From the sequence record PV935351.1: a stretch of 39,767 bases of DNA. The stretch is one strand, 5' to 3'. The position numbers and the translations under genes are program-made. The notes under the pieces are model-generated. The model saw only the letters and a program-made list of their open reading frames with translations, was not told the DNA's origin and ran no database searches. This document shows, piece by piece, positions 2,511 to 38,985 of this stretch. Numbering within the stretch: the stretch's first letter is position 1; the number at the start of each line of letters is the position of its first letter. This DNA is from a phage.

Positions 2511-2533
2511 ACTTAACTATCACTATAGGACTC
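2511..2533 (+). promoter_or_regulatory. phage RNAP promoter upstream of the RNAP gene
   Basis: CTTAACTATCACTATAGGA, +1 G at 2528; -8 to -1 (TCACTATA) identical to the T7 promoter. Confidence 0.7.
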
Positions 2534-2602
2534 AAGGTCTAAGACTACAAGTGAAAGACCAAAGAGACTCTAAGTGAAAGACTAATAACAAGGACTTTAA
2601 GT

Positions 2603-5284
2603 ATGAGCGTCATCTCTATTGATAAACACGACTTCTCTGATGTGTCGAACGCCATTGAGCCGTTTAACCTGCTGGCAGACCACTACGGGCAAGACCTTGC
2701 AGTCAAACAGCTTCAGCTTGAGCATGAGGCATACACAGAAGGCGAGCGACGTTTCATCAAAAACCTTGAGCGACAGACTGAGCGCGGGGAACTGGCAGAC
2801 AATCAGGTCGCCAAGCCTTTGATGCAGACTCTGGTGCCTAAGATTGCGCAAGCAGTCAAGGAGTGGCACGAAGGCCAAGACGGGAAGCTGTCAACCTCTC
2901 GTCCTAGCGTAGCGTTCACCATGTTAAGCACCGAAGAGAAGGCCGTCAAGGACCGCTCTCTGCGTATCTCTTGCGAGTCTGCTGCGGTCATCATACTGAA
3001 GGTCATACTCTCCAAGCTGGTAAAGCCTGAAGGGATACCGATTACACCGATGGCCTCAGCGTTAGGTCGCACACTTGAGGACGAAATCCGCTTCGGTCGC
3101 ATCCGTGACAAGGAGAAGGAGCACTTCAAGAAGGCGATAGCTGAGAACCTGAACAAGCGAGCTGGGGCATCCTACAAGAAAGCCTACATGCAAGCGGTAG
3201 AGGCATCCATGCTGGAGCAAGGCCAACTGGAAGATGCGTGGGGGACTTGGAGTCCGACCGAAGCGGTACACGTTGGCATCAAGATGCTAGAGATTGTCAT
3301 CCAGTCCACACAACTGGTCGAGCTTAAGCGTTATGGTGCTGGCAATGCGGCGGCTGACGTTGAGATGGTCCACCTGTCAGACTTCTGGGTCAAGAAGATG
3401 GCACAACGAGGATTCAGCCTTGCGGGTATAGCTCCAGTCTACCAGCCTTGCGTCGTTCCACCTAAGCCGTGGACTGGTGTCGTAGGTGGTGGGTACTGGG
3501 CCAAAGGTCGCAGACCGCTACCCCTGATTCGCTTAGGGTCTAAATCAGCGGTGGCACGTTATGAAGACGTATACATGCCTGAAGTCTATGACGCTGTGAA
3601 TATCATCCAGAATACACCTTGGAAAGTGAACAAGAAGGTACTGGACGTGGTGAACATGGTCGAGAAGTTGAACAACACGCCTATTGATGACATCCCTCAG
3701 ATGGAGCCACTGAAGCCTGAAGACTATGCGGGTGAGACTGAGGAGGAACTCAAGGCATGGAAGAAGGCTGCTGCTGGTATCTATCGCCGCGAGAAGGCCC
3801 GACAGTCACGCAGATTATCACTGAGCTTTATCGTTAACCAAGCAAACAAGTTCTCTCAGTTCAAGGCCATCTGGTTCCCGTACAACATGGATTGGCGAGG
3901 TCGTGTCTACGCTGTCCCGATGTTCAACCCTCAGGGTAACGACATGCAGAAGGGTCTACTGACTCTGGCAGTCGGCAAGCCTATTGGTGCTGACGGTTTC
4001 AAATGGCTGAAGGTCCACGGTGCGAACTGTGCGGGTGTCGATAAAGTCACCTTCGAGGAGCGCATCAAGTGGGTGGAAGACAACCACGAAAACATCATTG
4101 CTGCTGCTAAGGCACCGATGGATAGTATTGAGTGGTGGGGCAAGTTAGACTCTCCGTTCTGTTTCCTCGCGTTCTGCTTCGAGTATGCTGGCGTAATGCA
4201 CCACGGCCTGTCTTACTCCTGCTCGCTGCCGATAGCGTTCGATGGGTCCTGCTCTGGTATTCAGCACTTCAGTGCGATGCTTCGTGACCACATCGGTGGA
4301 CATGCAGTAAACCTGACGCCATCCGGTAAGGTACAAGACATCTACCGCATTGTGTCTGACCGCATTGAGGAGGAGCTTAAAGTCCTGCTGATTACAGGTA
4401 CTGACAACGAGATGGACACTCACGAGGACAAGAAAACTGGTGAGAGTACCGAACGTATCAAGCTGGGGACACGAGAGCTGGCCCGTCAGTGGCTGACATA
4501 CGGTATGTCACGCAAGGTCACTAAGCGTTCAGTCATGACTCTGGCCTATGGGTCGAAAGAGTACGGCTTCGCAGACCAAGTTTATGAGGACATCGTGATG
4601 CCAGCGATTGACTCAGGGTCTGGCGCTATGTTCACCGAGCCTAGCCAAGCGTCTCGCTTCATGGCTAAGATGATTTGGGAAGCTGTGAGTGTGACCGTAG
4701 TTGCTGCGGTTGACGCGATGAAGTGGCTTCAAGGTGCTGCCAAGCTGCTGGCTGCTGAGGTGAAGGACAAGAAGACTGGAGAAATCCTGAAGCCTTGCCT
4801 TCCGGTACACTGGGTAACACCTGATGGTTTCCCGGTCTGGCAGGAATACCGCAAGAAGGATACCACTCGTCTGAACCTGATGTTCTTAGGGTCATTCAAC
4901 CTTCAACCTACGGTCAACAAAGGTATGAAGAAGGAGTTGGATAAGCACAAGCAGGAGTCAGGAATTAGCCCGAACTTCGTCCACTCACAAGATGGTAGCC
5001 ATCTCCGCAAGACTGTAGTCCACACTCACCGCAAGTATGGCGTGATGTCATTCGCAGTGATTCACGATAGCTTCGGGACCATCCCGGCTGACGCTGAGTA
5101 TCTGTTCCGTGGCGTCCGTGAGACAATGGTCGAGACCTACCGCGACAACGATGTGCTGCTTGACTTCTACGAGCAGTTTGAATACCAGCTTCACGAGAGC
5201 CAGCGCGACAAGTTGCCTGAGCTTCCGAAGAAAGGTAAACTAAATATCGAGGACATCTTGTCTTCAGACTTTGCATTCGCTTAA
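2603..5284 (+). CDS. 1: T7-type single-subunit DNA-directed RNA polymerase
   Basis: 893 aa; collinear with recalled T7 RNAP, ending in the shared FAFA terminus and including WFPYNMDWRGRVYA, LPIAFDGSCSGIQHFSAMLRD and HDSFGT. Confidence 0.98.
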   Translation: MSVISIDKHDFSDVSNAIEPFNLLADHYGQDLAVKQLQLEHEAYTEGERRFIKNLERQTERGELADNQVAKPLMQTLVPKIAQAVKEWHEGQDGKLSTSRPSVAFTMLSTEEKAVKDRSLRISCESAAVIILKVILSKLVKPEGIPITPMASALGRTLEDEIRFGRIRDKEKEHFKKAIAENLNKRAGASYKKAYMQAVEASMLEQGQLEDAWGTWSPTEAVHVGIKMLEIVIQSTQLVELKRYGAGNAAADVEMVHLSDFWVKKMAQRGFSLAGIAPVYQPCVVPPKPWTGVVGGGYWAKGRRPLPLIRLGSKSAVARYEDVYMPEVYDAVNIIQNTPWKVNKKVLDVVNMVEKLNNTPIDDIPQMEPLKPEDYAGETEEELKAWKKAAAGIYRREKARQSRRLSLSFIVNQANKFSQFKAIWFPYNMDWRGRVYAVPMFNPQGNDMQKGLLTLAVGKPIGADGFKWLKVHGANCAGVDKVTFEERIKWVEDNHENIIAAAKAPMDSIEWWGKLDSPFCFLAFCFEYAGVMHHGLSYSCSLPIAFDGSCSGIQHFSAMLRDHIGGHAVNLTPSGKVQDIYRIVSDRIEEELKVLLITGTDNEMDTHEDKKTGESTERIKLGTRELARQWLTYGMSRKVTKRSVMTLAYGSKEYGFADQVYEDIVMPAIDSGSGAMFTEPSQASRFMAKMIWEAVSVTVVAAVDAMKWLQGAAKLLAAEVKDKKTGEILKPCLPVHWVTPDGFPVWQEYRKKDTTRLNLMFLGSFNLQPTVNKGMKKELDKHKQESGISPNFVHSQDGSHLRKTVVHTHRKYGVMSFAVIHDSFGTIPADAEYLFRGVRETMVETYRDNDVLLDFYEQFEYQLHESQRDKLPELPKKGKLNIEDILSSDFAFA

Positions 5285-5298
5285 CAGGAGAGAGAGTT

Positions 5299-5514
5299 AT
5301 GAAATTTGCACACAAGCAGGCTGGAGTTAATGGTGGGACTCAAATCGTGACCGTAACAGAACACAACGGAAAGGGTCTGGTGAAGACCACGGTCATTCCT
5401 ACCGAAATGTCAAAGCAGCTTAACGTCCCATTCAAGACCCTCGTCTATCTTGTGGAATCCAGCCACGAGAAATACCTGAAAGACGCAGTGACCAAGCTGG
5501 AGCAGACCAAATGA
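5299..5514 (+). CDS. hypothetical protein
   Basis: 71 aa with a strong RBS (AGGAGAGAG); no motif recognised. Confidence 0.55.
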   Translation: MKFAHKQAGVNGGTQIVTVTEHNGKGLVKTTVIPTEMSKQLNVPFKTLVYLVESSHEKYLKDAVTKLEQTK

Positions 5515-5589
5515 CAGACCTACAGTTACTGGCCTTGTGGCTTGGAGCACTAGCAGTATTCACTTTAATCCAACGCAGAAGAGGTTAAC

Positions 5590-5612
5590 CCTAAACTATC
5601 ACTATAGGATTA
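5590..5612 (+). promoter_or_regulatory. phage RNAP promoter
   Basis: CTAAACTATCACTATAGGA, +1 G at 5607. Confidence 0.8.
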
Positions 5613-5662: not shown

Positions 5663-5682
5663 ATTCAATCAGGAGCTACACC

Positions 5683-5862: not shown

Positions 5863-5865
5863 GAC

Positions 5866-7231: not shown

Positions 7232-7254
7232 CCTAAACTATCACTATAGGACAA
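7232..7254 (+). promoter_or_regulatory. phage RNAP promoter
   Basis: CCTAAACTATCACTATAGGAC, +1 G at 7249. Confidence 0.8.
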
Positions 7255-7542: not shown

Positions 7543-7975
7543 GGTGGGGGATACAGTTAAATATGTTGGACCAATTGGAGCCCACATGGGACGCTCCTGT
7601 GGCAAGGTGATAATGGTTAAGAATGAGCATGTGGCTGTTGTTAAGTGGCCCCATTCATCTGAACCACTCACTCACTCCATTAGTTCCTTAAGTATTACCA
7701 AGCAGGCGCAGTCCGAGCCGATAACCATAGGTCAGGAAGATAGCGTCCGTAAGCCATCTCACTATCAGGTCTTTGACGGTGTGGAATCCATTGAGATTAT
7801 CGCTCGGTCAATGACTGTCAGCGAGTTCCGTGGCTTCTGCATGGGTAACGTCCTTAAGTATCGACTCCGGGCTGGTAAGAAGTCCGAGCTGGCTACTATG
7901 GAGAAGGACCTAAACAAAGCAGCCTTCTACCAGGAGCTGTTCGACCTGCATAAAGGTAAGTGTTATGACGTCTAG
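7535..7975 (+). CDS. 1.7: gp1.7-like protein (nucleotide kinase family, C-terminal homology only)
   Basis: 146 aa; the C-terminal 80 aa (KPSHYQVFDGVESIEIIARSMTV...LKYRLRAGKKSELA...KCY) match recalled T7 gp1.7; the N-terminal 65 aa differ and lack the Cys-rich motifs. Confidence 0.75.
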   Translation: MVKVGDTVKYVGPIGAHMGRSCGKVIMVKNEHVAVVKWPHSSEPLTHSISSLSITKQAQSEPITIGQEDSVRKPSHYQVFDGVESIEIIARSMTVSEFRGFCMGNVLKYRLRAGKKSELATMEKDLNKAAFYQELFDLHKGKCYDV

Positions 7976-8387
7976 TGATTGCATTGACCATGACTACAAC
8001 TGCAAGAGCTACGCAAATGTGTATTCCAAAGCTCATGGTAGAAACTTTGGTCTTCACCGAATAGTTCTAGCGGAGAAGTTAGGAGTCGATGTGGCTGAAA
8101 TGAAGGGAGTAGCGATGCACTCTTGTGACAATAAGAGATGTGTCAATCCTGAACACTTACAGTTAGGGACCCAGAGTCAGAACGTACTGGATGCACACTC
8201 AAGAGGACTGGTAAACGTGGTGTCTGGAGAAAAGCACCCAATGATCAAGCTCACAGACGAGCAGATTGCATATGTTCTGGGTAGTACGCTAGGCGCGAGA
8301 GCGATTGGCAGAGAGCTGGGAGTTTCACATTCGTTAATAAGCAGGTTGAGAAATGGAAAAGCAAGAGCTTCCCAGCGAGTGGGCTGA
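7965..8387 (+). CDS. HNH homing endonuclease
   Basis: 140 aa; HNH core HSCDNKRCVNPEHLQLGTQSQN; C-terminal HTH-like segment; AT-richer with AGA/AGG codons. Confidence 0.8.
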   Translation: MTSSDCIDHDYNCKSYANVYSKAHGRNFGLHRIVLAEKLGVDVAEMKGVAMHSCDNKRCVNPEHLQLGTQSQNVLDAHSRGLVNVVSGEKHPMIKLTDEQIAYVLGSTLGARAIGRELGVSHSLISRLRNGKARASQRVG

Positions 8388-8460: not shown

Positions 8461-8615
8461 CTGACGTAGAAAAGAAATACATCGTGGAGCTTGAGGGTCG
8501 CGTTCAGTCATTCGATGTTCCGGTGTACGCAAAGTCTCTTGAAGAGGCTACCCTGAAGTCCCAAGAGTATGAGGACGCGGGGTTTGTGGTCGGACGGATT
8601 CGTCCTGAGACCTAA
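8457..8615 (+). CDS. 2: gp2-like inhibitor of host RNA polymerase
   Basis: 52 aa [31 protein letters not shown]...[11 protein letters not shown]; resembles recalled T7 gp2; GGAAGGAG RBS. Confidence 0.75.
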
Positions 8616-8633
8616 ACTATCACTGTAGGACAG
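8611..8633 (+). promoter_or_regulatory. phage RNAP promoter (variant, G at -3)
   Basis: CCTAAACTATCACTGTAGGAC; overlaps the gene 2 stop; precedes the SSB gene. Confidence 0.6.
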
Positions 8634-10787: not shown

Positions 10788-11003
10788 ATGATTAAACTTA
10801 TTGAATTTCTTGGTCGTCTGGTGGTGCGTGGTTATCGTCGTGCTGCGATACTGGAACGAAAGGTAGAAAAGAAGACTGCTGACAGTGCGGCTGATGCTGC
10901 TGCTCTGGCCGACAAGCTGACCATCGAGTCACTGGAAGCTGGCATGAAGGCTCGTCAGGCTGATACCAAAGCTGACCAATTGGCTCAGTTCTTCAAAGCC
11001 TAA
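10788..11003 (+). CDS. hypothetical protein
   Basis: 71 aa, hydrophobic N-terminus then Ala/Lys-rich helix; AAGGAGA RBS. Confidence 0.6.
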   Translation: MIKLIEFLGRLVVRGYRRAAILERKVEKKTADSAADAAALADKLTIESLEAGMKARQADTKADQLAQFFKA

Positions 11004-11021
11004 ACTATCACCTTAGGGATG
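10999..11021 (+). promoter_or_regulatory. degenerate phage-promoter-like sequence upstream of gene 4
   Basis: CTAAACTATCACCTTAGGGA; two changes at -4/-3 relative to the other promoters. Confidence 0.35.
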
Positions 11022-12951: not shown

Positions 12952-12998
12952 TAGACTCAAGGTCATTCACATCGAGTGGCCTTTATGATTAGACTAAA
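12952..12998 (+). ncRNA. conserved structured RNA element, copy B (candidate RNase III site)
   Basis: TAGACTCAAGGTCAT, 9 variable nt, GTGGCCTTTATGATTAGACTAAAC. Confidence 0.55.
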
Positions 12999-13011
12999 CG
13001 GAGGATTAACC

Positions 13012-13413
13012 ATGTTTGATTGCATTGAGTGGACCGGGTGTCGAGATAGTTTCGGCTATGGTATGCGAAAGGTCAACGGGAAGGTCCGTAGACTACATCT
13101 GATAGCCTTCGAGGAGGCGAATGGTCCGATACCAGAGGGAATGGTCGTGAGGCACAAATGTGACAACCCTGCGTGCTACAATCCAGAACACTTGGAGCTG
13201 GGGACAAGGGCTGAGAACAATCACGATAGAGACGTTAGAGGTCGAACCGCTAAAGGCGTGCGACATGGAAGCTCTAAGCTTACACCTGAAATAGTACAAG
13301 AGGCCAAGGCTCTTTACGCAGTAGGTGGCTGGACTCACCGCTCATTAGGTAAGAAGTATGGAGTGGGTCACCGCACACTGGCTAGAGCAATTGGAGGAAA
13401 AACATGGACTTAA
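13012..13413 (+). CDS. HNH homing endonuclease
   Basis: 134 aa from ATG 13012 (GGAGG RBS); HKCDNPACYNPEHLELGTRAENNHD core; C-terminal HTH-like segment; AGA/AGG codons. Confidence 0.8.
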   Translation: MFDCIEWTGCRDSFGYGMRKVNGKVRRLHLIAFEEANGPIPEGMVVRHKCDNPACYNPEHLELGTRAENNHDRDVRGRTAKGVRHGSSKLTPEIVQEAKALYAVGGWTHRSLGKKYGVGHRTLARAIGGKTWT

Positions 13414-15572
13414 GTAACGTATATGGGTCTGACATCGAGACCAACGGTCTCCTTGATACAGTCTCCCAGTTTCACTGTGGGGTCCTGATTAACGCCGAGT
13501 CGAATGAGACCCTTAAGTATGGGGTAGCTCCGATGGTCGGTATCGTCGGTGGCTTCAAAGAGTATGTACAGAAGGTGGAAGAGATTGCCGCATCACCTGA
13601 TGGTATGCTGGTATTCCACAACGGTATCAACTATGACGTCCCGGCTATTGACAAGCTGAAGCGTCTGTACTTTGGGAAACGCTTTAACTTCCCGAAACAC
13701 AAGATGATTGATACCTTGGTGCTTGGGCGCTTGATGTATCCAAACATTAAGTTCTCAGACATGGGCGCAGTGAAAGCTGGTCGTCTGCCACCTAAGATGA
13801 TGGGACGCCAGTCTCTTGAGGCTTGGGGCTATCGTCTCGGTGAGATGAAAGGTGAGTACAAACACGATTACGTTGCCAAGTGCAAGGCTGAAGGTATCGA
13901 ATATAAGGCTGGGGACGAATGGTTGTTCCCATCTCAGGAGATGCTAGACTATAACGTTCAAGACGTTGTGGTCACACTGGCGTTGTTCAAGAAGTTCCTG
14001 ACTGACAAGTATTACTTCCAGTCTGAACAGTTCGCTTTCGACCAGATTTATGCGTTGCGTCTGGAACATGATGCTGCGTGGACCTGTGCGAAGATGGAAC
14101 GTAACGGCTATCCGATGAACACCGAGATGGTCGAAGGCTTATATCGTGAACTCACCGTCAAACGTGCAGAGTTGTTGGACAAGCTGCGTTCGACTTTCGG
14201 TAGCTGGTATGCACCAAAGGGAGGCAAGGAGTTCTTCAAGCACCCACGGACAGGCAAGGACCTTCCGAAGTATCCGCGAGTCGTGTATCCTAAGGTCGGG
14301 TCAGTATTCAAGAAGCCGAAGAACAAAGCTCAACGCTTAGGTCTGGAACCTTGCGAGTTCGACTCACGAGACACGATGGAGGGAGCGCCGTTCACACCTA
14401 TCACTTACGTTGAGTTTAATCCGGGAAGCGGGGACCACTTAGCGAAAGTCCTGATGGAGCGTGGCTGGGAGCCTGTGGACTTCACTGACACCGGGAAACC
14501 TGTAGTCGATGACGAGACGTTAGAACACGTTAAGTTACCAGACGAAGAGGCTCAGGCTTGCGTAGAGCTGGTCCGTGAGTACCTGGTAGTCCAGAAGCGC
14601 ATCGGTCAGGCTGCTGAAGGTAAGAACGCATGGTTGAAACTTGTAGGTCCAGACGGACGTATGCACGGTTCAATCAACCCATGCGGTGCAGTAACAGGAC
14701 GTGCGACTCATAGTTCACCAAACATGGCTCAGGTCCCTGCTAACGGTGCTCCGTATGGTGAGATTTGCCGGGGTGCTTTCGGTGCAGCTTGGAACAAGAC
14801 GGATGGTAAGCCAGACCCTTGGATTCAAGTGGGTGTGGATGCTTCAGGTCTTGAGCTTCGTTGTCTGGGGAACCGAGCGGCTCCGTTTGATGGTGGTGCC
14901 TATGCGAAGACTGTGGTAGAAGGCGACATCCACTGGGCCAACGCAGTAAACGCTGGGTTAGCACCTAACGTCCCACGCGATAAGGCGAACCACGACCATG
15001 ATGCTTTCCGTAACAACGCTAAGACGTTCATCTATGCGTTCCTGTATGGTGCAGGGGCCGCTAAGATTGGACTGATAGTAGGCGGTGGTAAGAAGGAAGG
15101 TTCAGCTCTCATGAAGAAATTCATTGAGGGTACACCAGCCATCAAAGACCTCAGGGAAGCTGTGAGTAGTACGTTAATCTCAGACTCTAAGTGGGTGGAC
15201 GGAGAGAACATCGTCAAGTGGAAACGCCGTTGGTTGCGTGGACTTGATGGTCGCCGTATCCACATCCGGTCGCCACACTCAGCACTGAACGCCTTACTTC
15301 AAGGCGATGGTGCGGTAGTCTGTAAGCACTGGATTGTCGAGACTGAACGTATGCTTGAAGAGGCAGGGTATGTTCACGGCTGGGAAGGAGACTTTGCGTA
15401 CATGGCATGGGTTCACGACGAATTGCAGATTGCGTGCCGTACTCAGGAGATTGCCGAAGAAGTAGTCAAGATTGCTCAACTTGCTATGCGTAAGGTGGGT
15501 GAGTTCTATAACTTTAAATGTGTCCTTGATACCGAAGGTAAGATTGGACCAACGTGGAAGGAGTGTCACTAA
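13404..15572 (+). CDS. 5: DNA polymerase (family A, T7 gp5 type)
   Basis: 722 aa; N-terminal exonuclease motif SDIETNGL; LEAWGYRLGEMKGEY, KTFIYAFLYGAG and YMAWVHDE match recalled T7 gp5. Confidence 0.98.
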   Translation: MDLSNVYGSDIETNGLLDTVSQFHCGVLINAESNETLKYGVAPMVGIVGGFKEYVQKVEEIAASPDGMLVFHNGINYDVPAIDKLKRLYFGKRFNFPKHKMIDTLVLGRLMYPNIKFSDMGAVKAGRLPPKMMGRQSLEAWGYRLGEMKGEYKHDYVAKCKAEGIEYKAGDEWLFPSQEMLDYNVQDVVVTLALFKKFLTDKYYFQSEQFAFDQIYALRLEHDAAWTCAKMERNGYPMNTEMVEGLYRELTVKRAELLDKLRSTFGSWYAPKGGKEFFKHPRTGKDLPKYPRVVYPKVGSVFKKPKNKAQRLGLEPCEFDSRDTMEGAPFTPITYVEFNPGSGDHLAKVLMERGWEPVDFTDTGKPVVDDETLEHVKLPDEEAQACVELVREYLVVQKRIGQAAEGKNAWLKLVGPDGRMHGSINPCGAVTGRATHSSPNMAQVPANGAPYGEICRGAFGAAWNKTDGKPDPWIQVGVDASGLELRCLGNRAAPFDGGAYAKTVVEGDIHWANAVNAGLAPNVPRDKANHDHDAFRNNAKTFIYAFLYGAGAAKIGLIVGGGKKEGSALMKKFIEGTPAIKDLREAVSSTLISDSKWVDGENIVKWKRRWLRGLDGRRIHIRSPHSALNALLQGDGAVVCKHWIVETERMLEEAGYVHGWEGDFAYMAWVHDELQIACRTQEIAEEVVKIAQLAMRKVGEFYNFKCVLDTEGKIGPTWKECH

Positions 15573-17209: not shown

Positions 17210-17232
17210 ACTAAACTATCACTATAGGGACT
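17210..17232 (+). promoter_or_regulatory. phage RNAP promoter
   Basis: CTAAACTATCACTATAGGGAC, +1 G at 17227; flanked by a 9-bp inverted repeat (17169-17177 / 17244-17252). Confidence 0.8.
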
Positions 17233-17293
17233 TTAGGACCTAAGATATGACTATAAGATAGACTTTAGTCTTAACTTAAAGAGGAGATTCAAG

Positions 17294-18466: not shown

Positions 18467-20035
18467 ATGGCTGAACGTGAAGGGTTCGCTGCTGAAGGAG
18501 CCAAAGCGGTCTATGACCGCCTGAAGAACGGTAGACAGCCATATGAGACACGCGCTCAGAATTGTGCTGCTGTCACTATCCCGTCACTGTTTCCTAAGGA
18601 GTCCGACAACTCGTCTACTGAGTACACCACTCCGTGGCAAGCTGTAGGTGCTCGCTGTTTGAACAACTTGGCTGCAAAGCTGATGTTGGCGTTATTCCCT
18701 CAGTCACCGTGGATGCGACTTACAGTCTCCGAATATGAGGCTAAGACCTTGAGTCAGGACTCAGAGGCTGCTGCTCGTGTTGACGAGGGGCTTGCTATGG
18801 TCGAGCGTGTGTTGATGGCCTACATGGAGACAAACAGTTTCCGTGTGCCATTGTTCGAAGCTCTGAAACAGCTTATAGTCTCCGGTAACTGTCTGCTCTA
18901 CATTCCAGAGCCTGAACAGGGAACCTACAGTCCCATGCGAATGTACCGCTTAGTGTCTTACGTTGTTCAACGTGATGCGTTCGGTAACATCTTGCAGATT
19001 GTGACTCTCGACAAGGTAGCGTTTAGTGCTCTACCGGAAGACGTGAAGTCTCAACTCAACGCAGACGACTATGAGCCTGACACCGAGCTGGAAGTGTATA
19101 CGCACATTTACCGTCAGGACGACGAATATCTACGCTACGAGGAAGTGGAAGGCATTGAGGTAGCAGGGACCGATGGTTCTTACCCACTGACTGCCTGTCC
19201 ATACATCCCGGTACGAATGGTTCGACTGGACGGTGAAGACTATGGTCGCTCTTATTGCGAGGAGTATCTGGGAGACCTGAACTCGCTGGAGACGATTACA
19301 GAAGCTATCACCAAAATGGCTAAGGTAGCCTCCAAGGTGGTGGGCCTCGTTAACCCGAACGGTATCACGCAACCTCGTCGTCTGAACAAGGCGGCTACAG
19401 GTGAGTTCGTGGCTGGTCGCGTTGAGGACATCAACTTCCTGCAACTGACGAAAGGTCAGGACTTTACGATTGCCAAGTCGGTGGCTGATGCTATCGAGCA
19501 ACGTTTAGGCTGGGCCTTCCTTCTTAATAGTGCTGTTCAGCGTAATGCCGAGCGAGTCACTGCTGAAGAGATTCGTTACGTTGCTGGTGAACTGGAGGCG
19601 ACCTTAGGTGGCGTGTACTCTGTACAGTCACAAGAGCTTCAGTTACCTATCGTCCGTGTGCTGATGAACCAACTTCAGTCTGCTGGCATGATTCCTGACC
19701 TTCCGAAAGAAGCGGTTGAGCCTACGGTATCCACTGGTCTGGAAGCGTTAGGTCGTGGTCAGGACTTGGAGAAGCTAACTCAGGCAGTCAACATGATGAC
19801 CGGGCTACAGCCTCTGCAACAGGACCCAGACATTAACTTGCCCACCCTTAAGCTGCGACTGCTGAATGCCTTAGGCATTGATACTGCTGGTCTTCTGCTG
19901 ACTCAGGACGAAAAGATGCAACGTATTGCTGAACAATCCGCTCAAGGAGCTGTGGTCAACGGTGCGTCTGCTGCTGGTGCTAATATGGGCGCTGCTGTAG
20001 GTCAGGGAGCTGGTGAGGACATGGCTCAAGCCTAA
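18467..20035 (+). CDS. 8: head-to-tail connector (portal) protein
   Basis: 522 aa; PYETRAQNCA, TPWQAVGAR, YRLVSYVVQRDAFGN, ACPYIPVRMVRLDGEDYGRSY match recalled T7 gp8. Confidence 0.97.
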   Translation: MAEREGFAAEGAKAVYDRLKNGRQPYETRAQNCAAVTIPSLFPKESDNSSTEYTTPWQAVGARCLNNLAAKLMLALFPQSPWMRLTVSEYEAKTLSQDSEAAARVDEGLAMVERVLMAYMETNSFRVPLFEALKQLIVSGNCLLYIPEPEQGTYSPMRMYRLVSYVVQRDAFGNILQIVTLDKVAFSALPEDVKSQLNADDYEPDTELEVYTHIYRQDDEYLRYEEVEGIEVAGTDGSYPLTACPYIPVRMVRLDGEDYGRSYCEEYLGDLNSLETITEAITKMAKVASKVVGLVNPNGITQPRRLNKAATGEFVAGRVEDINFLQLTKGQDFTIAKSVADAIEQRLGWAFLLNSAVQRNAERVTAEEIRYVAGELEATLGGVYSVQSQELQLPIVRVLMNQLQSAGMIPDLPKEAVEPTVSTGLEALGRGQDLEKLTQAVNMMTGLQPLQQDPDINLPTLKLRLLNALGIDTAGLLLTQDEKMQRIAEQSAQGAVVNGASAAGANMGAAVGQGAGEDMAQA

Positions 20036-20053
20036 ACTATCACTATAGGAACT
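20031..20053 (+). promoter_or_regulatory. phage RNAP promoter
   Basis: CCTAAACTATCACTATAGGAAC, +1 G at 20048; the transcript 5' end (ATAGGAAC) can pair with GTTCCTAT at 20097-20104. Confidence 0.8.
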
Positions 20054-21017: not shown

Positions 21018-21040
21018 ACTAAACTATCACTATAGGGAGA
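21018..21040 (+). promoter_or_regulatory. phage RNAP promoter for the major capsid gene (phi10-like)
   Basis: CTAAACTATCACTATAGGGAGACC; +1 to +8 GGGAGACC as in T7 phi10; leader stem GGGAGACC / GGTTCCCC; RBS AGGAGA...CATATG. Confidence 0.9.
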
Positions 21041-22317: not shown

Positions 22318-22321
22318 TTGA

Positions 22322-22361
22322 AACCCCTTGGGTGCCTTCGGGTGCTTGAGGGGTTTTTTTG
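22322..22361 (+). terminator. late terminator (Tphi-like)
   Basis: AACCCCTTGGG...CTTGAGGGGTTTTTTTG; GC-rich hairpin plus U7 tract, close to recalled T7 Tphi. Confidence 0.85.
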
Positions 22362-25408: not shown

Positions 25409-25458
25409 AAGGGCCTATAGATTTACCTTAACTATCACTATAGGGACTATAGGCCCTT
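25409..25458 (+). other. 12-bp perfect inverted repeat enclosing the gene 13 promoter (candidate RNase III site)
   Basis: AAGGGCCTATAG (25409-25420) / CTATAGGCCCTT (25447-25458), 26-nt loop containing promoter positions -17 to +3. Confidence 0.6.
25426..25448 (+). promoter_or_regulatory. phage RNAP promoter
   Basis: CCTTAACTATCACTATAGGGAC, +1 G at 25443. Confidence 0.8.
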
Positions 25459-31800: not shown

Positions 31801-32706
31801 AGTAAGCGTAAGTTCGATGACCGCTGGCTGAAGACCGCTGGTATATCTGACGAGCAGTGGAATGGCATTAAGTCCCTAATCCGTGAGTCAGTGACTCGTG
31901 GTCCAGACGGGAAGTACACCATCAAGGATAAGAAGGCGTTCAGTCAGGACCCAAGGGCTATGGACCTATGGCGTATGGGTGATACCATCGCTGACGAAAC
32001 GTTACTACGTCCTCATAAGCTGTCCAACATGGACGCAAAGGCTTATGGTCCTATCGCTAAGACTGTCCTTCAGTTTAAGAACTTCGTCATCAAGTCCATC
32101 AATGGGCGAACCATGCGTACCTTCTATAACGCCACGAAGAACAACCGAGCGATTGACGCTGCACTATCGACCGTGATGTCTATGGGTCTGGCTGGTATCT
32201 ACTACATGGCTCAGGCGCACGTCAAGGCTTATGCTATGCAGGATGGTCGAGACCGTGACTACCTTAAGCAAGCTCTGGACCCGACGATGATTGGTTATGC
32301 GGCTCTGTCCCGTAGTTCACATCTGGGTGGACCACTTGGGGTAGCTAACATTCTGGGTGGCATCGCTGGGTATGAGGACACTAAGATGCTCCGTTCGTCT
32401 ATCCTACCTCGTTCGCCCACAGAGAAGCCTGAACGTGCCATCGCGTATGGTGCAGCTACAAGTGACCCTGTGATGAATGTTGTTGGTAACTTCTTGGAGC
32501 AGGTTCCAGCTTTCGGATATGCTGCTAACGTTGGTGCTTCGGCTTATAACTTGGCTGGCTACCTGAAGGCCGACACTCGGGTAAACGAGCGAGACTACAT
32601 GACCGGGATGTATAACACCTTCCGTGAACTGGTTCCGAACGACCCGATTACTCAGAAGTTGCTACTGGGAACGTTTGAGGAGCAAGGTATCCACATCAAG
32701 GACTAA
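28819..32706 (+). CDS. 16: internal virion protein D (ejection core) with a non-T7-type N-terminal domain
   Basis: 1295 aa; from about residue 200 collinear with recalled T7 gp16 (TWFGFG, VRSPTGMQSGASGK, RPEVKKRVDE, MPAYDRRVNGDIAIMG, LSRSS); the N-terminal 130 aa lack the T7 transglycosylase TESRF motif. Confidence 0.93.
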   Translation: MATRGIRNNNPGNIRVSKDQWEGMTGDDGAFVTFDSPESGVRALGKNLLSYGRQGYDSIEKIINRWAPPNENETKAYIDSVVAATGIPATQSLDLSNPDTLSSLAQAISFHETGSRYDPEVYQKGVARALNGISPKTPPVSANVFDALTEGLKAKPKVALGENLPTAAGLNIEGQAPEAPNESFGEMFYKSTGETMQEREDRSTWFGFGSATEAEVKNSMVGVAIRAGQTEDSLDVIGDVFNPTRWNNHKWSREELDQIRNAGVLPQYYGVITGGSPQNLTELINLALENQKLDQEKAKAGTGAQLAAGVIGAGVDPLTYVPIAGQIGKGGKLVNKMFTVAAQSGALAGVSEMARTSVAGGDAHVAEAILGGALFGGGMTAIADGLGRALGRNTNEFAGPATRLEARETARNVDGQDLSRLPIQEGEETFSYQGVKFADVPNEPGSVRLEDGSILIGENPLNPKTRQVFDEVIEPERAAAGVNLGGLTEIGLKLLRSENPEIRGVASDLVRSPTGMQSGASGKIGTTASDVFERLRAVDHRFYNDIDDAVTEALKDPYFQTAFWRDSGAFRQDIYQRVSMAIEDGSGNLKAELTPGELKVYDLLKNQFDAKREMMENPAMFGRPDAQSIFPGSRFKGTYVPHVYSKQMKELYTKELGSPEALQEAIKKSWLTSYASRPEVKKRVDEALLESDPTLTPEGLAAAVDKYANDKAYGISHTEQFERSSVMEENINGLVGLENNSFLEARNLFDSDMSIVLPNGQTFSVNNLREWDMDKIVPAYNRRVNGDIAIMAGTGKTTKDMKDLVETMMNKAGDDGKLKGEVSTLRDTLKILTGRARRDGADDAAFATVMRTMTDLSFFAKNAYMGVQNLTEIGGMLARGNVRAMLHGVPIFRDLAFRNKKVGASEIKDLHNVIFGKELDDSIRPSKQDVIDRLRSYSDLGRGTATALGTAKYYTGELAVRSPFTKVLNGTTNYLLDAGRQGFLSDIVEHSLTGSKRKFDDRWLKTAGISDEQWNGIKSLIRESVTRGPDGKYTIKDKKAFSQDPRAMDLWRMGDTIADETLLRPHKLSNMDAKAYGPIAKTVLQFKNFVIKSINGRTMRTFYNATKNNRAIDAALSTVMSMGLAGIYYMAQAHVKAYAMQDGRDRDYLKQALDPTMIGYAALSRSSHLGGPLGVANILGGIAGYEDTKMLRSSILPRSPTEKPERAIAYGAATSDPVMNVVGNFLEQVPAFGYAANVGASAYNLAGYLKADTRVNERDYMTGMYNTFRELVPNDPITQKLLLGTFEEQGIHIKD

Positions 32707-32724
32707 ACTATCACTATAGGAAAC
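32702..32724 (+). promoter_or_regulatory. phage RNAP promoter for the tail fibre gene
   Basis: CTAAACTATCACTATAGGAAAC, +1 G at 32719; overlaps the gene 16 stop. Confidence 0.8.
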
Positions 32725-32771: not shown

Positions 32772-35700
32772 ATGTCCACGATTACACAATTCCCTTCAGG
32801 AAACACTCAGTACAGGATTGAGTTCGACTACCTAGCCAGAACGTTTGTGGTTGTTACGCTGGTGAATAGCTCTAACCCTACCATGAACCGTGTACTGGAA
32901 GTTGGTCGAGATTACCGATTCCTTAATCCAACGATGATTGAGATGTTGGTTGACCAATCAGGTTTCGACATCGTTCGTATTCACCGTCAGACTGGAACTG
33001 ACTTAGTGGTAGACTTCAGGAATGGCTCAGTGTTGACAGCTAGTGACCTGACCAATTCAGAGCTTCAGGCTATCCATATTGCAGAAGAAGGTCGAGACCA
33101 AACGGTTGACTTAGCGAAGGAATATGCCGATGCTGCTAGTAGCTCTGCTGGCAACGCTAAGGATAGCGAGGACGAAGCACGACGAATCGCTGAGAGTATC
33201 AGGGAAGCTGGTCTAATTGGCTATATTACCCGTCGCTCCTTCGAGAAAGGCTACAACGTTACAACATGGAGCGAGGTCCTGCTATGGGAAGAGGATGGTG
33301 ATTATTACCGCTGGGATGGTACGCTTCCAAAGAACGTTCCTGCTGGTTCAACTCCTGAAACTTCCGGTGGGATTGGATTAGGTGCGTGGGTTAGTGTTGG
33401 TGATGCTGCTTTAAGAAGTCAGATTTCAAACCCGGAGGGGGCAATACTCTACCCTGAATTACATAGAGCACGCTGGCTTGATGAAAAAGATGTGCGTGGT
33501 TGGGGTGCTAAAGGGGATGGTGTCACTGATGATACAGCAGCGTTAACGAGCGCATTAAGCGCCACACCTGTTGGACAAAAGGTTAATGGCAATGGGAAGA
33601 CATATAAGGTCACATCACTTCCTGACATTAGTCGCTTCATCAACACTCGTTTCGTTTATGAGCGCATTCCCGGACAACCTCTTTATTATGCCTCTGAAGA
33701 ATTTGTTCAGGGTGAGCTATTCAAAATAACTGACACCCCTTATTACAATGCGTGGCCTCAGGATAAAGCGTTCGTATATGAGAATGTGATATATGCACCT
33801 TACATGGGTAGCGATCGTCATGGTGTTAGTCGTCTGCATGTATCATGGGTTAAGTCTGGTGATGACGGTCAAACATGGTCTACTCCAGAGTGGTTAACTG
33901 ATCTGCATCCAGATTACCCTACAGTGAACTATCATTGTATGAGTATGGGTGTATGTCGCAACCGTCTGTTTGCCATGATTGAAACACGTACTTTAGCCAA
34001 GAACGCATTAACCAATTGTGCATTGTGGGATCGCCCCATGTCTCGTAGCCTGCATCTTACTGGTGGTATCACTAAAGCTGCAAATCAGCAATATGCAACA
34101 ATACATGTACCAGACCACGGACTATTCGTTGGTGATTTTGTTAACTTCTCTAATTCTGCGGTAACAGGTGTCTCCGGTGACATGACTGTTGCAACCGTAA
34201 TAGATAAGGACAACTTCACGGTTCTTACACCCAACCAGCAGACTTCAGATTTGAATAACGCTGGAAAGAATTGGCACATGGGTACTTCTTTCCATAAGTC
34301 GCCATGGCGTAAGACAGACCTTGGTCTAATCCCTCGTGTCACAGAGGTGCATAGCTTTGCTACTATTGATAACAATGGCTTTGTTATGGGTTATCATCAA
34401 GGCGATGTAGCTCCATGCGAAGTTGGACTTTTCTATTTCCCTGACGCTTTCAATAGCCCATCTAGTTATGTTCGTCGTCAGATACCATCTGAGTATGAAC
34501 CAGATGCGTCAGAGCCGTGCATCAAGTACTATGACGGTGTATTATACCTTATCACTCGTGGCACTCGTGGGGATAGACTGGGTAGCTCTTTGCATCGTAG
34601 TAGAGACATAGGTCAGACTTGGGAGTCGCTGAGATTTCCACATAATGTTCATCATACTACATTACCTTTTGCTAAAGTAGGGGATGACCTTATTATGTTT
34701 GGTTCAGAACGTGCAGAAAATGAATGGGAAGAAGGTGCGCAAGATGATCGTTACAAGGCATCTTATCCTCGCACCTTCTATGCACGCTTGAATGTAAACA
34801 ATTGGAATGCAGACGATATTGAATGGGTTAACATCACTGACCAGATTTATCAGGGCGGAATAGTTAACTCAGGTGTAGGCGTTGGTTCGGTAGTTGTGAA
34901 GGATAGTTACATCTACTACATGTTTGGTGGAGAGGACCATTTTAACCCATGGTCATATGGAGATAACTCAGCGAAGGATCCATTCAAAGCAGATGGTCAT
35001 CCCTCAGATTTGTATTGCTACAAAATGAAGATTGGCCCAGACAATCGTGTTTCAAGGGATTTCAGGTATGGTGCTGTACCTAACAGAGCTGTTCCCGTGT
35101 TTTTTGATACGAATGGGATTCGCACTGTTCCTGCGCCAATTGAATTTACAGGGGATTTAGGTTTAGGTCATGTGACCATTAGAGCCAGCACCAGTAGTAA
35201 CATTCGCTCTGAAGTTTTAATGGAAGGTGAATATGGGTTTATCGGAAAATCTATACCGACTGATAACCCGGCAGGGCAGCGCACTATATTTTGCGGAGGC
35301 GACAGTACCAGTTCTTCTTCTGGTGCACAGATTACGCTTTATGGTGCAAATAACACCGACTCAAAGCGAATAGTTTACAATGGTGCTGAGCATCTGTTCC
35401 AGACTGCTGACGTTAAGCCTTATAACGATAACGTCACTGCGCTTGGTGGGCCTAGCAACCGTTTCACCACTGCATACCTCGGAAGCAACCCTATTGTTAC
35501 TTCTAACGGGGAGAGGAAAACAGAGCCGGTAGTTTTTGATGATGCTTTCCTTGATGCCTGGGGTGATGTTCACTACATCATGTACCAGTGGTTGGATGCT
35601 GTTCAACTGAAAGGCAATGATGCTCGTATTCACTTCGGTGTTATTGCTCAGCAAATTCGTGATGTATTCATTGCGCATGGTCTGATGGACGAAAACAGTA

Positions 35701-35966
35701 CGAATTGTCGTTATGCTGTTCTGTGCTATGACAAGTATCCACGGATGACCGATACGGTATTTTCGCACAATGAAATCATTGAACACACTGACGAGGAGGG
35801 TAATGTCACTACTACGGAAGAACCTGTATACACCGAGGTGGTTATTCACGAAGAGGGTGAGGAGTGGGGTGTTCGGCCTGACGGAATTTTCTTTGCTGAA
35901 GCCGCTTATCAGAGAAGAAAACTGGAAAGAATCGAAGCCAGACTTTCTGCTCTTGAACAGAAGTAA
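32772..35966 (+). CDS. 17: tailspike endosialidase (endo-N-acetylneuraminidase) with gp17-like N-terminal adaptor and C-terminal chaperone domain
   Basis: 1064 aa; N-terminus MSTITQFPSGNTQYRIEFDYLARTF... is gp17-like; two Asp-boxes SGDDGQTW and SRDIGQTW; matches the endoNF precursor of phage K1F as I recall it; AT-richer from about 33420. Confidence 0.92.
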   Translation: MSTITQFPSGNTQYRIEFDYLARTFVVVTLVNSSNPTMNRVLEVGRDYRFLNPTMIEMLVDQSGFDIVRIHRQTGTDLVVDFRNGSVLTASDLTNSELQAIHIAEEGRDQTVDLAKEYADAASSSAGNAKDSEDEARRIAESIREAGLIGYITRRSFEKGYNVTTWSEVLLWEEDGDYYRWDGTLPKNVPAGSTPETSGGIGLGAWVSVGDAALRSQISNPEGAILYPELHRARWLDEKDVRGWGAKGDGVTDDTAALTSALSATPVGQKVNGNGKTYKVTSLPDISRFINTRFVYERIPGQPLYYASEEFVQGELFKITDTPYYNAWPQDKAFVYENVIYAPYMGSDRHGVSRLHVSWVKSGDDGQTWSTPEWLTDLHPDYPTVNYHCMSMGVCRNRLFAMIETRTLAKNALTNCALWDRPMSRSLHLTGGITKAANQQYATIHVPDHGLFVGDFVNFSNSAVTGVSGDMTVATVIDKDNFTVLTPNQQTSDLNNAGKNWHMGTSFHKSPWRKTDLGLIPRVTEVHSFATIDNNGFVMGYHQGDVAPCEVGLFYFPDAFNSPSSYVRRQIPSEYEPDASEPCIKYYDGVLYLITRGTRGDRLGSSLHRSRDIGQTWESLRFPHNVHHTTLPFAKVGDDLIMFGSERAENEWEEGAQDDRYKASYPRTFYARLNVNNWNADDIEWVNITDQIYQGGIVNSGVGVGSVVVKDSYIYYMFGGEDHFNPWSYGDNSAKDPFKADGHPSDLYCYKMKIGPDNRVSRDFRYGAVPNRAVPVFFDTNGIRTVPAPIEFTGDLGLGHVTIRASTSSNIRSEVLMEGEYGFIGKSIPTDNPAGQRTIFCGGDSTSSSSGAQITLYGANNTDSKRIVYNGAEHLFQTADVKPYNDNVTALGGPSNRFTTAYLGSNPIVTSNGERKTEPVVFDDAFLDAWGDVHYIMYQWLDAVQLKGNDARIHFGVIAQQIRDVFIAHGLMDENSTNCRYAVLCYDKYPRMTDTVFSHNEIIEHTDEEGNVTTTEEPVYTEVVIHEEGEEWGVRPDGIFFAEAAYQRRKLERIEARLSALEQK

Positions 35967-36099
35967 TAAACAAACCCTTTTGCCCTTAAGTTGGTTGGGT
36001 AGATGTTAGAAGGTTGGGGGAGGTAGAGGCTAACTACACACTAACCAACGTATGTAACAACTTTGGGTCATGGACGACCCGCTTTAAACTGGAGGTTTT

Positions 36100-36297: not shown

Positions 36298-36557
36298 CGC
36301 AGATGGACTTAGAGAAGTTCCTCTTAATGCTAGATACTGAACGTGCTCGACTCATGCTGCAAGACCTGCGGGATGACACTAAGCGTTCACCTCAGCTCTA
36401 CAACGCCATTGAGAAGCTGCTTGCTCGTCACAACTTTGTGTTAAGCAAGGTGTCTGTTGACGAGAAGACGCTCGCTGATATGGAGGCCCTTAACGCAGAG
36501 TACGATAAGGTGCTCTCCGCTACGGAAGATAATGACACCGGGTATGGTGTTCAATAA
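36294..36557 (+). CDS. 18: terminase small subunit
   Basis: 87 aa; size and position of T7 gp18. Confidence 0.85.
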   Translation: MTQMDLEKFLLMLDTERARLMLQDLRDDTKRSPQLYNAIEKLLARHNFVLSKVSVDEKTLADMEALNAEYDKVLSATEDNDTGYGVQ

Positions 36558-36561
36558 GTGT

Positions 36562-36611
36562 TAGACTCAAGGTCATTACTATATGTAGTGGCCTTTATGG
36601 TTAACACTAAC
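36562..36611 (+). ncRNA. conserved structured RNA element, copy C (candidate RNase III site)
   Basis: TAGACTCAAGGTCAT, 11 variable nt, GTGGCCTTTATGGTTAACACTAACT; sits where T7 has the R18.5 site. Confidence 0.6.
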
Positions 36612-36658
36612 TAGTGGAGGCGACTCTACGTGAAATCTGATAAACCGGGAGGGCAACT

Positions 36659-37108
36659 ATGCTCGAATTTTTAAAGAGAGCGGCTCCGTGGTTACTTGCA
36701 GCAGTGATGTTTGCTGGTGGCTACCACACCGCTAACAATAAGTGGGAGGCTAAGGTCAATGCAGAATACACCTCGAATCTTAAGGCATCGGAAGATACAA
36801 GGCTTGCTGTCCAAGCTGAAGTCAACAAAGTGTCCAAACGGTTTCAGGACGAAATGTCCTCGCTGGAAGGCAGCACTGATAGGATTATTGCTGACCTTAA
36901 GTCTGACAATAAGCGGCTGCTCATCCGAGTCAAACCTACGAGTGGAACCACGCAAAGTGACGGTCGATGCTTCATTGATGGTTACGCCGAACTTGACGAA
37001 CGAGATGCTAAACGTCTTATCACCATCGGAGTGAAAGGAGACAAGTGGATTAAGGCCCTTCAAGACACTGTGATAGCCTTACAGCAAGAGAAGGAGGTGA
37101 CGCATTGA
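36659..37108 (+). CDS. 18.5: i-spanin (Rz-like)
   Basis: 149 aa; N-terminal TM helix ([14 protein letters not shown]), coiled-coil periplasmic region. Confidence 0.9.
36759..37034 (+). CDS. 18.7: o-spanin (Rz1-like lipoprotein) embedded in the +1 frame of gene 18.5
   Basis: About 91 aa; lipobox LTISGC; PRWKAALIG...SGC..SES...VDASLMV.PNLT.EMLNV matches recalled T7 gp18.7. Confidence 0.85.
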   Translation: MQNTPRILRHRKIQGLLSKLKSTKCPNGFRTKCPRWKAALIGLLLTLSLTISGCSSESNLRVEPRKVTVDASLMVTPNLTNEMLNVLSPSE

Positions 37109-38868
37109 GTAAAGACTTAGTGGCGCGTCAGGCGCTAATGACTACCCGTATGAAGGCAGACTTCGTGTTCTTCCTGTTCGTCCTGTGGAAAGCTCTTAGC
37201 CTACCAGTACCAACCAGATGCCAGATAGATATGGCCCGCAAGCTATCGGCTGGGGACAACAGGCGTTTCATCCTACAGGCGTTCCGTGGTATCGGGAAGT
37301 CCTTCATTACGTGTGCATTCGTAGTCTGGAAACTATGGAACAACCCAGACTTGAAGTTCATGATTGTGTCGGCCTCAAAGGAACGAGCCGATGCGAACTC
37401 CATCTTCATCAAGCGAATCATCGACCTCATGCCTCAGCTTCGGGAACTCAAACCTAAGCAGGGGCAGCGAGATGCGGTTATCAGCTTCGACGTTGGACCA
37501 GCCAAGCCAGACCACTCACCTTCGGTTAAGTCCGTTGGTATCACTGGTCAGTTGACTGGTAGTCGTGCTGACCTCCTGATTGCCGATGACGTGGAGGTTC
37601 CAAACAACTCGGCGACTCAGGCTGCACGAGACCGTCTGTCAGAGCTTGTAAAAGAGTTCGACGCTATCCTGAAGCCGGGAGGTACAATCATCTATCTGGG
37701 TACTCCTCAGAACGAGATGACCTTATATCGTGAGCTGGAAGGCCGTGGATACACCACTACCATCTGGCCCGCTCGCTACCCACGCGATAAGAAGGACTGG
37801 CAGTCTTACGGCGACCGTCTGGCACCGATGCTTCAGGCAGAGCTTGAAGAGGACCCTGAGTCCTTCTACTGGCGTCCGACAGATGAAGTACGATTCGATG
37901 ATACGGACCTGAAGGAACGTGAGCTGTCCTATGGTAAAGCTGGCTTCGCTCTACAGTTCATGCTTAACCCGAACCTGAGTGATGCTGAGAAGTACCCTCT
38001 GAAGCTCCGTGACCTTATCGTAGCCGACTTGGACCCAGCGTCTAGCCCAATGGTATACCAATGGCTTCCTAACCCTCAGAACAAGCGTGAGGACGTTCCT
38101 AACGTTGGACTCATGGGTGACTCATACCACACGTATCAGACTGTAGGTTCTGCCTTCAGTTCGTACACCCAGAAGATTCTGGTCATTGACCCTAGTGGTC
38201 GTGGTAAGGATGAAACTGGCTATGCGGTACTATATCAGCTCAACGGCTACATCTTCGCTATGGAAGTTGGAGGTATGCGTGGTGGTTATGAGGACTCTAC
38301 GCTGGAAGCCTTGGCTAAGATTGGTCGTAAGTGGAAGGTCAACGAATACGTCATTGAGGGTAACTTCGGTGATGGTATGTACCTTGAGCTATTCAAGCCT
38401 GTAGCTGCCCGTATCCATCCTGCGGCTGTAACTGAAGTGAAGAGTAAGGGTCAGAAAGAACTCCGCATCTGTGACGTTCTGGAGCCTATCATGGGGTCTC
38501 ACCGACTTATCGTCAACGCTGCTGCTATCGTCCAAGACTACCAGACAGCCTCTGACAAGGATGGTGTGCGTAACCCTATCTACTCTCTCTTCTACCAGAT
38601 GACCCGTATCTCTCGTGAACGTGGAGCCTTGGCACACGATGACCGACTTGATGCGCTGGCTATCGGTGTACAGTTCTTCGTTGAGTCTATGGCTAAGGAT
38701 GCCAACAAAGGCGAACGTGAAGTCACTGAGGAGTGGCTGGAGGAACAGATGGAGAATCCACGGAAAGGCTTCGAGTCCATCCACACTGAGTTCTGGGACA
38801 ATGGGGTCCGGGTAACTCACGATACGGACGACGAGCTGGGACTAGGGTCCTACGTTACGTTCCACTAG
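37105..38868 (+). CDS. 19: terminase large subunit
   Basis: 587 aa from TTG 37105 (AAGGAGG RBS); [82 protein letters not shown] match recalled T7 gp19. Confidence 0.97.
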
Positions 38869-38877
38869 CTGAATGAA

Positions 38878-38926
38878 TAACTATAGGCGAAAGCTGCATG
38901 AATAAGCAGTTAGTAACCTATAGTTA
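38878..38926 (+). other. 10-bp perfect inverted repeat downstream of gene 19
   Basis: TAACTATAGG (38878-38887) / CCTATAGTTA (38917-38926), 29-nt spacer; the arms resemble the promoter 3' half (ACTATAGG). Confidence 0.5.
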
Positions 38927-38962
38927 CTACCAGTCTAACCTACTGTTTTATAAGGAGTTTGG

Positions 38963-38985
38963 ACTTAACTATCACTATAGGGAAG
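38963..38985 (+). promoter_or_regulatory. phage RNAP promoter near the right end (phiOR-like)
   Basis: CTTAACTATCACTATAGGGAAG, +1 G at 38980. Confidence 0.8.

Follow-up and report, generated by a model that had tools for sequence, protein, structure and literature searches.

Eleven predicted promoters of the K1F class and their T7-type RNA polymerase in a Kayfunavirus genome

Introduction

Does a T7-like phage whose promoters share part of their sequence with those of T7 have a promoter specificity of its own? The question is raised by the phage genome of sequence record PV935351.1 (39,767 nucleotides (nt); this whole stretch is called the window here). A first-pass annotation had listed 11 promoters in it, had assigned them a specificity region of their own and had predicted that the RNA polymerase (RNAP) of the phage does not use T7 promoters efficiently. 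By its sequence, the window is the complete genome of a K1-capsule-specific, K1F-like phage of the genus Kayfunavirus (Studiervirinae). Very probably, the 11 sites are the promoters of this phage, are read by its own T7-type RNAP, the product of gene 1, and make up a separate class, the published K1F class. They are taken as promoters on the grounds of motif statistics, placement on the + strand before genes, synteny with T7, conservation in the phages K1F and CR44b, and the literature. The specificity is distinct from that of T7, as had been proposed; it does not belong to this phage alone, since the polymerase-promoter specificity class is common to the whole genus Kayfunavirus. The promoter class is already known, in a public record (that of CR44b) since 2014 and in synthetic biology since 2012. 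The gain is that a new K1F-like phage now has a correct transcription map and that its RNAP and promoters are placed in the class that is used as a T7-orthogonal partner.

Detection and sequence of the promoters

The motif ACTATCACTATA occurs nine times in the window, on the + strand only, where shuffled sequences give an expectation of 0.00, and TCACTATA occurs exactly nine times against 1.19 expected. A weight matrix covering positions -17 to +6 was built from the nine canonical sites and used to scan both strands of the whole window. The canonical sites score 34.5-37.6 bits. The matrix adds two + strand sites far above background, one of 29.3 bits with its +1 at 8628 and one of 24.9 bits with its +1 at 11016. 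The scan returned the same count of 11 that the first-pass annotation had reached, and the range of 2511-38985 given there runs exactly from -17 of the first site to +6 of the last. Below these sites, the next best score is 12.5 bits (17239-17261, CCTAAGATATGACTATAAGATAG), the remainder do not exceed 6.7 bits and the maximum on the - strand is 6.6 bits. The sequence at 17239-17261 was rejected as a twelfth promoter for its G at -7 and A at +1. This degenerate sequence starts 29 nt downstream of the promoter phi6.5 and is kept in K1F and CR44b; it is probably a non-promoter and may be a decayed duplicate. No site with three or fewer mismatches to the T7 consensus 23-mer was found anywhere in the window, and an Rfam search of the window found nothing.

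The consensus of the 11 sites is MCTWAACTATCACTATAGGR. Positions -16, -15, -13 to -5, -2, -1, +1 and +2 are invariant in all 11 sites, and the nine canonical ones are also uniform at -4 and -3. ACTA at -12 to -9 is present in every site, as had been claimed, and the ACTAT at -12 to -8 that marks the K1F class is likewise found in 11 of 11. The CGAC that T7 was said to carry at -12 to -9 was confirmed from its 17 annotated promoters (NC_001604). The claim that all 11 sites have TCACTATA at -8 to -1 holds for nine of them and fails for the other two, phi2.5 having TCACTGTA with a G at -3 and phi4 having TCACCTTA with C at -4 and T at -3. A second difference from T7, absent from the first-pass annotation, is located at -17 to -14, where the block is MCTW in the window and TAAT in T7; none of the 11 sites departs from C at -16 and T at -15.

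Promoter map

All 11 sites are oriented with the genes. Each follows a gene, with the next open reading frame (ORF) beginning 33-259 nt further downstream; two of them overlap the final codons of a gene (genes 8 and 16). The sites show a one-to-one synteny with phi1.1, phi1.5/1.6, phi2.5, phi3.8, phi6.5, phi9, phi10, phi13, phi17 and phiOR of T7. Three features by which promoters are recognized in Studiervirinae are found in the window: a repeated block of ~23 base pairs (bp) from -17 to +6, co-orientation and synteny, and, on the same genome, a gene for the cognate single-subunit RNAP with its catalytic residues and specificity loop.

The extra site compared with T7 is phi1 (ACTTAACTATCACTATAGGACTC, 2511-2533, +1 at 2528; this and all following window features are on the + strand), which is located 75 nt upstream of the RNAP gene and scores 34.5 bits. 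The annotation of T7 has just an Escherichia coli promoter directly upstream of gene 1. Phi1, upstream of the phage's own RNAP gene, is conserved in identical form in K1F and is annotated as a 'predicted promoter' in CR44b. Judged from its position, phi1 would give positive feedback on the RNAP gene. No phiOL-like phage promoter was seen near the left end of the window in the matrix scan.

The promoter after gene 1 (CCTAAACTATCACTATAGGATTA, 5590-5612, +1 at 5607) occupies the position of phi1.1A/B in T7. Together with phi6.5 (ACTAAACTATCACTATAGGGACT, 17210-17232, +1 at 17227), phi9 (CCTAAACTATCACTATAGGAACT, 20031-20053, +1 at 20048), which overlaps the end of gene 8, phi10 (ACTAAACTATCACTATAGGGAGA, 21018-21040, +1 at 21035), which precedes the major capsid gene, phi13 (CCTTAACTATCACTATAGGGACT, 25426-25448, +1 at 25443) and phi17 (ACTAAACTATCACTATAGGAAAC, 32702-32724, +1 at 32719), which precedes the endosialidase tailspike gene, it was identified by the exact motif, by the matrix and by comparison with CR44b. 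Phi1.6 (CCTAAACTATCACTATAGGACAA, 7232-7254, +1 at 7249) lies 33 nt before gene 1.6; K1F and CR44b have a G at its -12 position. The rightmost site is phiOR (ACTTAACTATCACTATAGGGAAG, 38963-38985, +1 at 38980), whose first 21 nt are identical to the minimal promoter of the Ro45lw RNAP (PMC12272871).

The two variant sites are phi2.5 (CCTAAACTATCACTGTAGGACAG, 8611-8633), located before gene 2.5, and phi4 (CCTAAACTATCACCTTAGGGATG, 10999-11021), located before gene 4. At each of them, the deviating bases are the same in K1F and CR44b. Their changes fall in the melting region at -4/-3, and both sites are located in the early/middle region that resembles the class II region of T7. By analogy with the class II variants of T7, phi2.5 and phi4 are probably weaker promoters.

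A terminator-like hairpin with a 17-bp stem and a T run is located at 22320-22357, between genes 10 (capsid) and 11, at the position of Tphi in T7. It is a predicted terminator that would end the phi10 unit.

The RNA polymerase and its recognition loops

Gene 1 (2603-5284) encodes a single-subunit RNAP of 893 amino acids that is 64% identical to T7 RNAP over its full length. Its product matches the T7 RNAP structures PDB 1CEZ and 1QLN over the full length (E = 0), and the alignment shows that D537, K631, Y639, H811 and D812 of T7 RNAP are conserved. Comparison with the K1F RNAP showed that only 14 of the 893 residues differ (98.4% identity).

In the T7 complex, R746, N748, R756 and Q758 are the four residues that form hydrogen bonds with promoter bases, and positions 748, 756 and 758 are coupled to promoter specificity across T7-like enzymes (PMC11880802). 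The specificity loop of the window RNAP, as aligned to T7 RNAP, is YRKKDTTRLNLMFLGSFNLQPTVNKGMKKELD (residues 749-780, corresponding to 739-770 of T7; nt 4847-4942). The peptide GFPVWQEYRKKDTTRLNL, which the first-pass annotation had quoted from this region for comparison with T7, was found at residues 742-759 (nt 4826-4879). The comparison shows that R746, N748 and Q758 of T7 are retained as R756, N758 and Q768, that R756 is replaced by N766 and Q754 by S764, and that the distal part of the loop is rewritten. At T7 positions 748, 756 and 758, the window RNAP has N, N and Q, the same as the K1F RNAP, which places the enzyme in the K1F class. R756 of T7 RNAP reads promoter position -9. The loss of the arginine at this position fits the change of -9 from C:G to A:T.

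A second protein element, which faces the upstream region of the promoter, is also changed. The AT-rich recognition loop of T7 RNAP faces promoter positions -17 to -13. Its equivalent in the window RNAP (nt 2879-2911) is DGKLSTSRPSV in the alignment, compared with KAK-RGKRPT in T7, and is one residue longer. The diverged loop fits the different block at -17 to -14.

By analogy with T7, the specificity loop would enter the major groove around -12 to -7, and contacts to -17 to -13 would come from the AT-rich recognition loop; the promoter would melt at its TATA block (-4 to -1), and transcription would begin at the G of GGR. The core from -8 to +2, TCACTATAGG, is common to the window and T7, and the recognition block is ACTAT in place of the CGACT of T7. 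The ACTAT block co-varies with the Arg-to-Asn change at the position of T7 R756 and the Gln-to-Ser change at that of Q754, and the block at -17 to -14 (MCTW, compared with TAAT in T7) co-varies with the different AT-rich loop.

Comparison with related phages and engineered systems

All 11 sites recur in phage K1F (AM084414 and DQ111067) at corresponding gene positions, the variants TCACTGTA and TCACCTTA among them, and K1F has the same endosialidase tailspike. Differences between K1F and the window were found in four of the 11 sites, namely at -12 of phi1.6, at -17 of phi4, at +6 of phi9 and at +3 to +6 of phiOR. Neither of the two K1F records carries a promoter annotation. The record of Citrobacter phage CR44b (HG818823) lists eleven features of 23 bp as 'predicted promoter'; they fall at the same 11 positions and are almost identical in sequence. 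CR44b has a different host and a different tail fibre, and its promoters are predictions, as are those of the window. The exact 18-mer CTWAACTATCACTATAGG is present in several copies per contig in ~20 further IMG/VR contigs of 39-40.5 kb. Eight copies of the same 18-mer in the Kayfunavirus Sparklingdew have been read as promoters (PMC13298934).

Experimental evidence for a promoter of this sequence comes from Ro45lw. Its purified RNAP transcribes in vitro from ACTTAACTATCACTATAGGGA, and the +1 G was mapped by sequencing (PMC12272871). This minimal promoter is identical to phiOR of the window from -17 to +4. The Ro45lw enzyme is listed with 894 amino acids, and the ORF of the window has 893 plus the stop codon.

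The promoters resemble those of T7 in their length of 23 bp, the TCACTATAGG core, the start at G, the combination of identical late and deviant early promoters, and the gene positions. However, T7 has 17 promoters compared with 11 here, and its phiOL, phi1.3, phi4c, phi4.3 and phi4.7 are without equivalents in the window. The engineered T7(K1F) RNAP and its promoter P_K1F use the same loop sequence class and the same -12 to -7 block for selectivity (PMC3458549). In contrast with the native enzyme, which differs from T7 RNAP also in the AT-rich loop and in the promoter block at -17 to -13, the engineered pair has a T7 scaffold and T7 flanking promoter sequence. Two promoter blocks and two protein loops set the native class apart from T7, whereas the engineered versions changed one of each.

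Cross-recognition with T7

Matrix scores were compared in both directions. Under a T7 promoter matrix, the window sites score -3.7 to -27.6 bits, compared with 26.5-40.4 bits for T7's own promoters. The T7 promoters score -3.5 to -17.6 bits under the window matrix. In the experiments of Temme et al. in 2012, residues Q744-I761 of T7 RNAP were replaced by the K1F loop and positions -12 to -7 of the T7 promoter by the K1F consensus; the K1F pair was active, with a 17-fold induction, and the RNAP set was called highly orthogonal (PMC3458549). The T7(K1F) pair was reused by Segall-Shapiro et al. with a K1FR variant (PMC4299498). In the analysis of Zhu in 2025, K1F is one of nine specificity clusters that are set by residues 748, 756 and 758 and five promoter bases (PMC11880802). 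The predicted inefficiency of cross-recognition is supported by the K1F-loop chimera (PMC3458549), which is not the native enzyme, and by the negative matrix cross-scores. From the sequences, little cross-use of T7 promoters is expected of this polymerase class.

It is improbable that the polymerase discriminates only weakly and that the window RNAP and T7 RNAP use each other's promoters substantially. Such weak discrimination would agree with the TCACTATAGG core that is shared with T7 and with the conservation of three of the four base-contacting residues (R746, N748 and Q758). It would also agree with a promoter-dependent background signal that was put down to cross-reactivity of T7 RNAP (PMC12272871), and with the later judgement that the T3/K1F/N4 set of Temme et al. 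is of limited orthogonality (PMC11880802). However, the block that the loop contacts departs from T7 at four bases in a row and the block at -17 to -14 at another four; in addition, R756, which contacts -9, is replaced, and the cross-scores are negative both ways. Temme et al. themselves call each RNAP highly orthogonal (PMC3458549).

Slightly less probable still is that discrimination from T7 is set mainly by -17 to -13 and the AT-rich loop and not by -12 to -9 and the specificity loop. Two invariant bases of the window sites, C at -16 and T at -15, both of which are A in T7, point in this direction, as does the strong divergence of the AT-rich loop with its one additional residue. However, the swap of Q744-I761 together with -12 to -7 alone gave an active and selective pair in which -17 to -13 of T7 was kept (PMC3458549), and the coupling analysis puts the specificity signal in the loop (PMC11880802). 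The notion that the repeats are some other dispersed element, such as targets of HNH homing endonucleases (two HNH endonucleases are encoded in the window) or recombination or packaging signals, is hardly credible given a 10-bp core identical to the T7 promoter core, copies that are co-oriented with genes at 33-259 nt upstream of start codons and at T7 promoter positions, and an identical 21-mer that drives in vitro transcription by a Kayfunavirus RNAP (PMC12272871).

The assignment of the 11 sites and the gene 1 RNAP to a K1F class distinct from T7 has several points weighing against it. N748, which reads -11/-10 in T7, is unchanged despite new bases at both of these promoter positions, and the three key residues thus account for the residue-to-base logic only in part. 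Residue 775 (nt 4925-4927, the position of K765 in T7) is Met in the window and Thr in K1F and CR44b; it is the sole difference from K1F inside the specificity loop and is located in the distal part. The orthogonality data come from a T7 scaffold with the K1F loop alone and not from the native enzyme, and non-cognate pairs of the Temme set are judged relatively highly active by Zhu in 2025 (PMC11880802). Ro45lw is a different phage isolate, and its enzyme is likened to that of the window by promoter and length, not by protein identity. Initiation at the +1 G from this sequence and the orthogonality set by the loop are taken from the literature; the phage's own transcription, the behaviour of its enzyme and the strengths of its sites are what we infer from sequence.

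Chromosomal islands with K1F-type promoters

The IMG/VR scan with the 18-mer also returned three contigs outside Kayfunavirus genomes, one of which (L068) is an E. coli chromosomal element. This element was found in 168 of 5,426 complete E. coli genomes. In E. coli CFSAN064035 (NZ_CP031134; locus L101, 6539-12929), it is 6.37 kb long and lies between direct repeats (17 nt) of the 3' end of the tRNA-Gly. Its order is a tyrosine integrase, a DUF4145 protein, a non-coding stretch of ~920 bp, a Rha/Ant-like gene and two genes without a detectable family. The DUF4145 protein matches PD-T7-4 (E = 1e-102), which is RAZR, an abortive-infection RNase active against T3 and T7 (PMC13017515; PMC9519451). 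The non-coding stretch holds three T7-group promoter-like sites that all face the downstream genes. Two of these are of the K1F type; the remaining one belongs to a different type and lies ~30 bp upstream of the first of the two.

When one genome per bacterial species was scanned, Enterobacteriaceae gave nine occurrences of the K1F 18-mer, in E. coli, Shigella (two), Citrobacter (two), Pseudocitrobacter, Leclercia, Buttiauxella and Enterobacter. At eight of these loci, the neighbours are the same integrase or island genes; none of the island proteins had a match at the Pseudocitrobacter locus. At that locus (Pseudocitrobacter faecalis NZ_QNRL01000018; L110, 2300-2352), an inverted imperfect copy, CCCTATAAGTGATAG, precedes the K1F-type site. 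Island loci related to L101 are, besides L068, L102, L104, L112, L117, L118, L120, L124 and L125. The K1F-type site of the islands is usually ~27 bp from a second T7-group-like site, which is either of the T3 type, ACCCTCACTATAGGG, or a variant with ACCT, ACCCC or ACCCAC at -12 to -8. Several islands hold two such promoter pairs, ~560 bp apart. The T3-type variant recurs in other 40-kb phage contigs, which shows that phages do use promoters of this type. RAZR/PD-T7-4 often occupies the position adjoining the integrase, which can also hold a different cargo gene.

The stretch of ~540 nt between the promoter clusters is nearly invariant across genera. The few compensatory pair changes observed, all in one lineage, are too little for a claim of RNA structure. 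The non-coding stretch of the islands gave no Rfam family apart from the tRNA and no match in the phage collection. A 329-amino-acid protein of the islands has no sequence match in Pfam, PHROG, NCBIfam, PADLOC or PDB; its AlphaFold2 model has a predicted local distance difference test score (pLDDT) of 38.6 and is unusable, and its hhalign comparison with the window capsid protein was negative. Short contigs with this protein were considered as excised islands, and the candidate was dropped because the one examined is an ordinary chromosome fragment.

Mobile islands of the host that carry K1F-class promoters would make promoter specificity a trait that other elements can exploit. The islands were reportedly proposed by Chen and Schneider in 2006 to be satellites of T7-like helper phages. 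They are not taken as undescribed, because a reference list names Chen and Schneider 2006 on tandem T7-like promoter islands. The link to RAZR, an explicit pairing of K1F and T3 types and a prevalence figure were not found in the literature searched, which excludes the text of Chen and Schneider 2006. What appears to go beyond that work is the co-occurrence of K1F- and T3-type promoters, the connection with RAZR and an arms-race reading. The arms-race reading is put forward tentatively, as a rather unlikely scenario: Kayfunaviruses would induce or help the islands via their RNAP, and the pressure from eavesdropping would feed the divergence of promoter specificity among co-circulating T7-group phages. 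Going by the promoter types, the islands might then respond to the phage described here.

Matches to an 18-mer in Flavobacteriaceae (CTAAACTATCACTATAGG, n = 10) were rejected as promoters, since their flanks are homologous and lie inside one conserved gene. The loci are L103, L105, L107, L111, L115, L116, L119, L121 and L123. This 18-mer is a coincidence spread by homology, and exact-match scans of large collections need flank checks.

Genome and related records

The genome is complete, with 39,767 bp, 49.9% G+C and identical 204-bp direct terminal repeats. All the large ORFs are on the + strand in T7 gene order. Each half of the genome is matched by K1F and dozens of Kayfunavirus records with 93-97% identity over 90-100% of the query, and the nucleotide identity to K1F is ~95%. 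Membership of the genus Kayfunavirus follows from the genome-wide similarity to K1F and its relatives, the T7-like order and the direct terminal repeats. The tailspike (32772-35966, 1064 amino acids) has the full set of endosialidase domains.

The two ORFs for HNH homing endonucleases are located at 7965-8387 and 12976-13413. Gene 5, which encodes the DNA polymerase (13404-15572), is one unbroken ORF of 722 amino acids in the window. In contrast, both K1F records join two pieces of gene 5 around a homing-endonuclease gene. In many RefSeq and PHROG-based annotations, the T7-type RNAP of such phages is labelled 'N4-like RNA polymerase', and near-identical phage records are credited to Acinetobacter, Enterococcus, Providencia and Klebsiella hosts. 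Both the 'N4-like' label and the odd host credits look like annotation or attribution artefacts.

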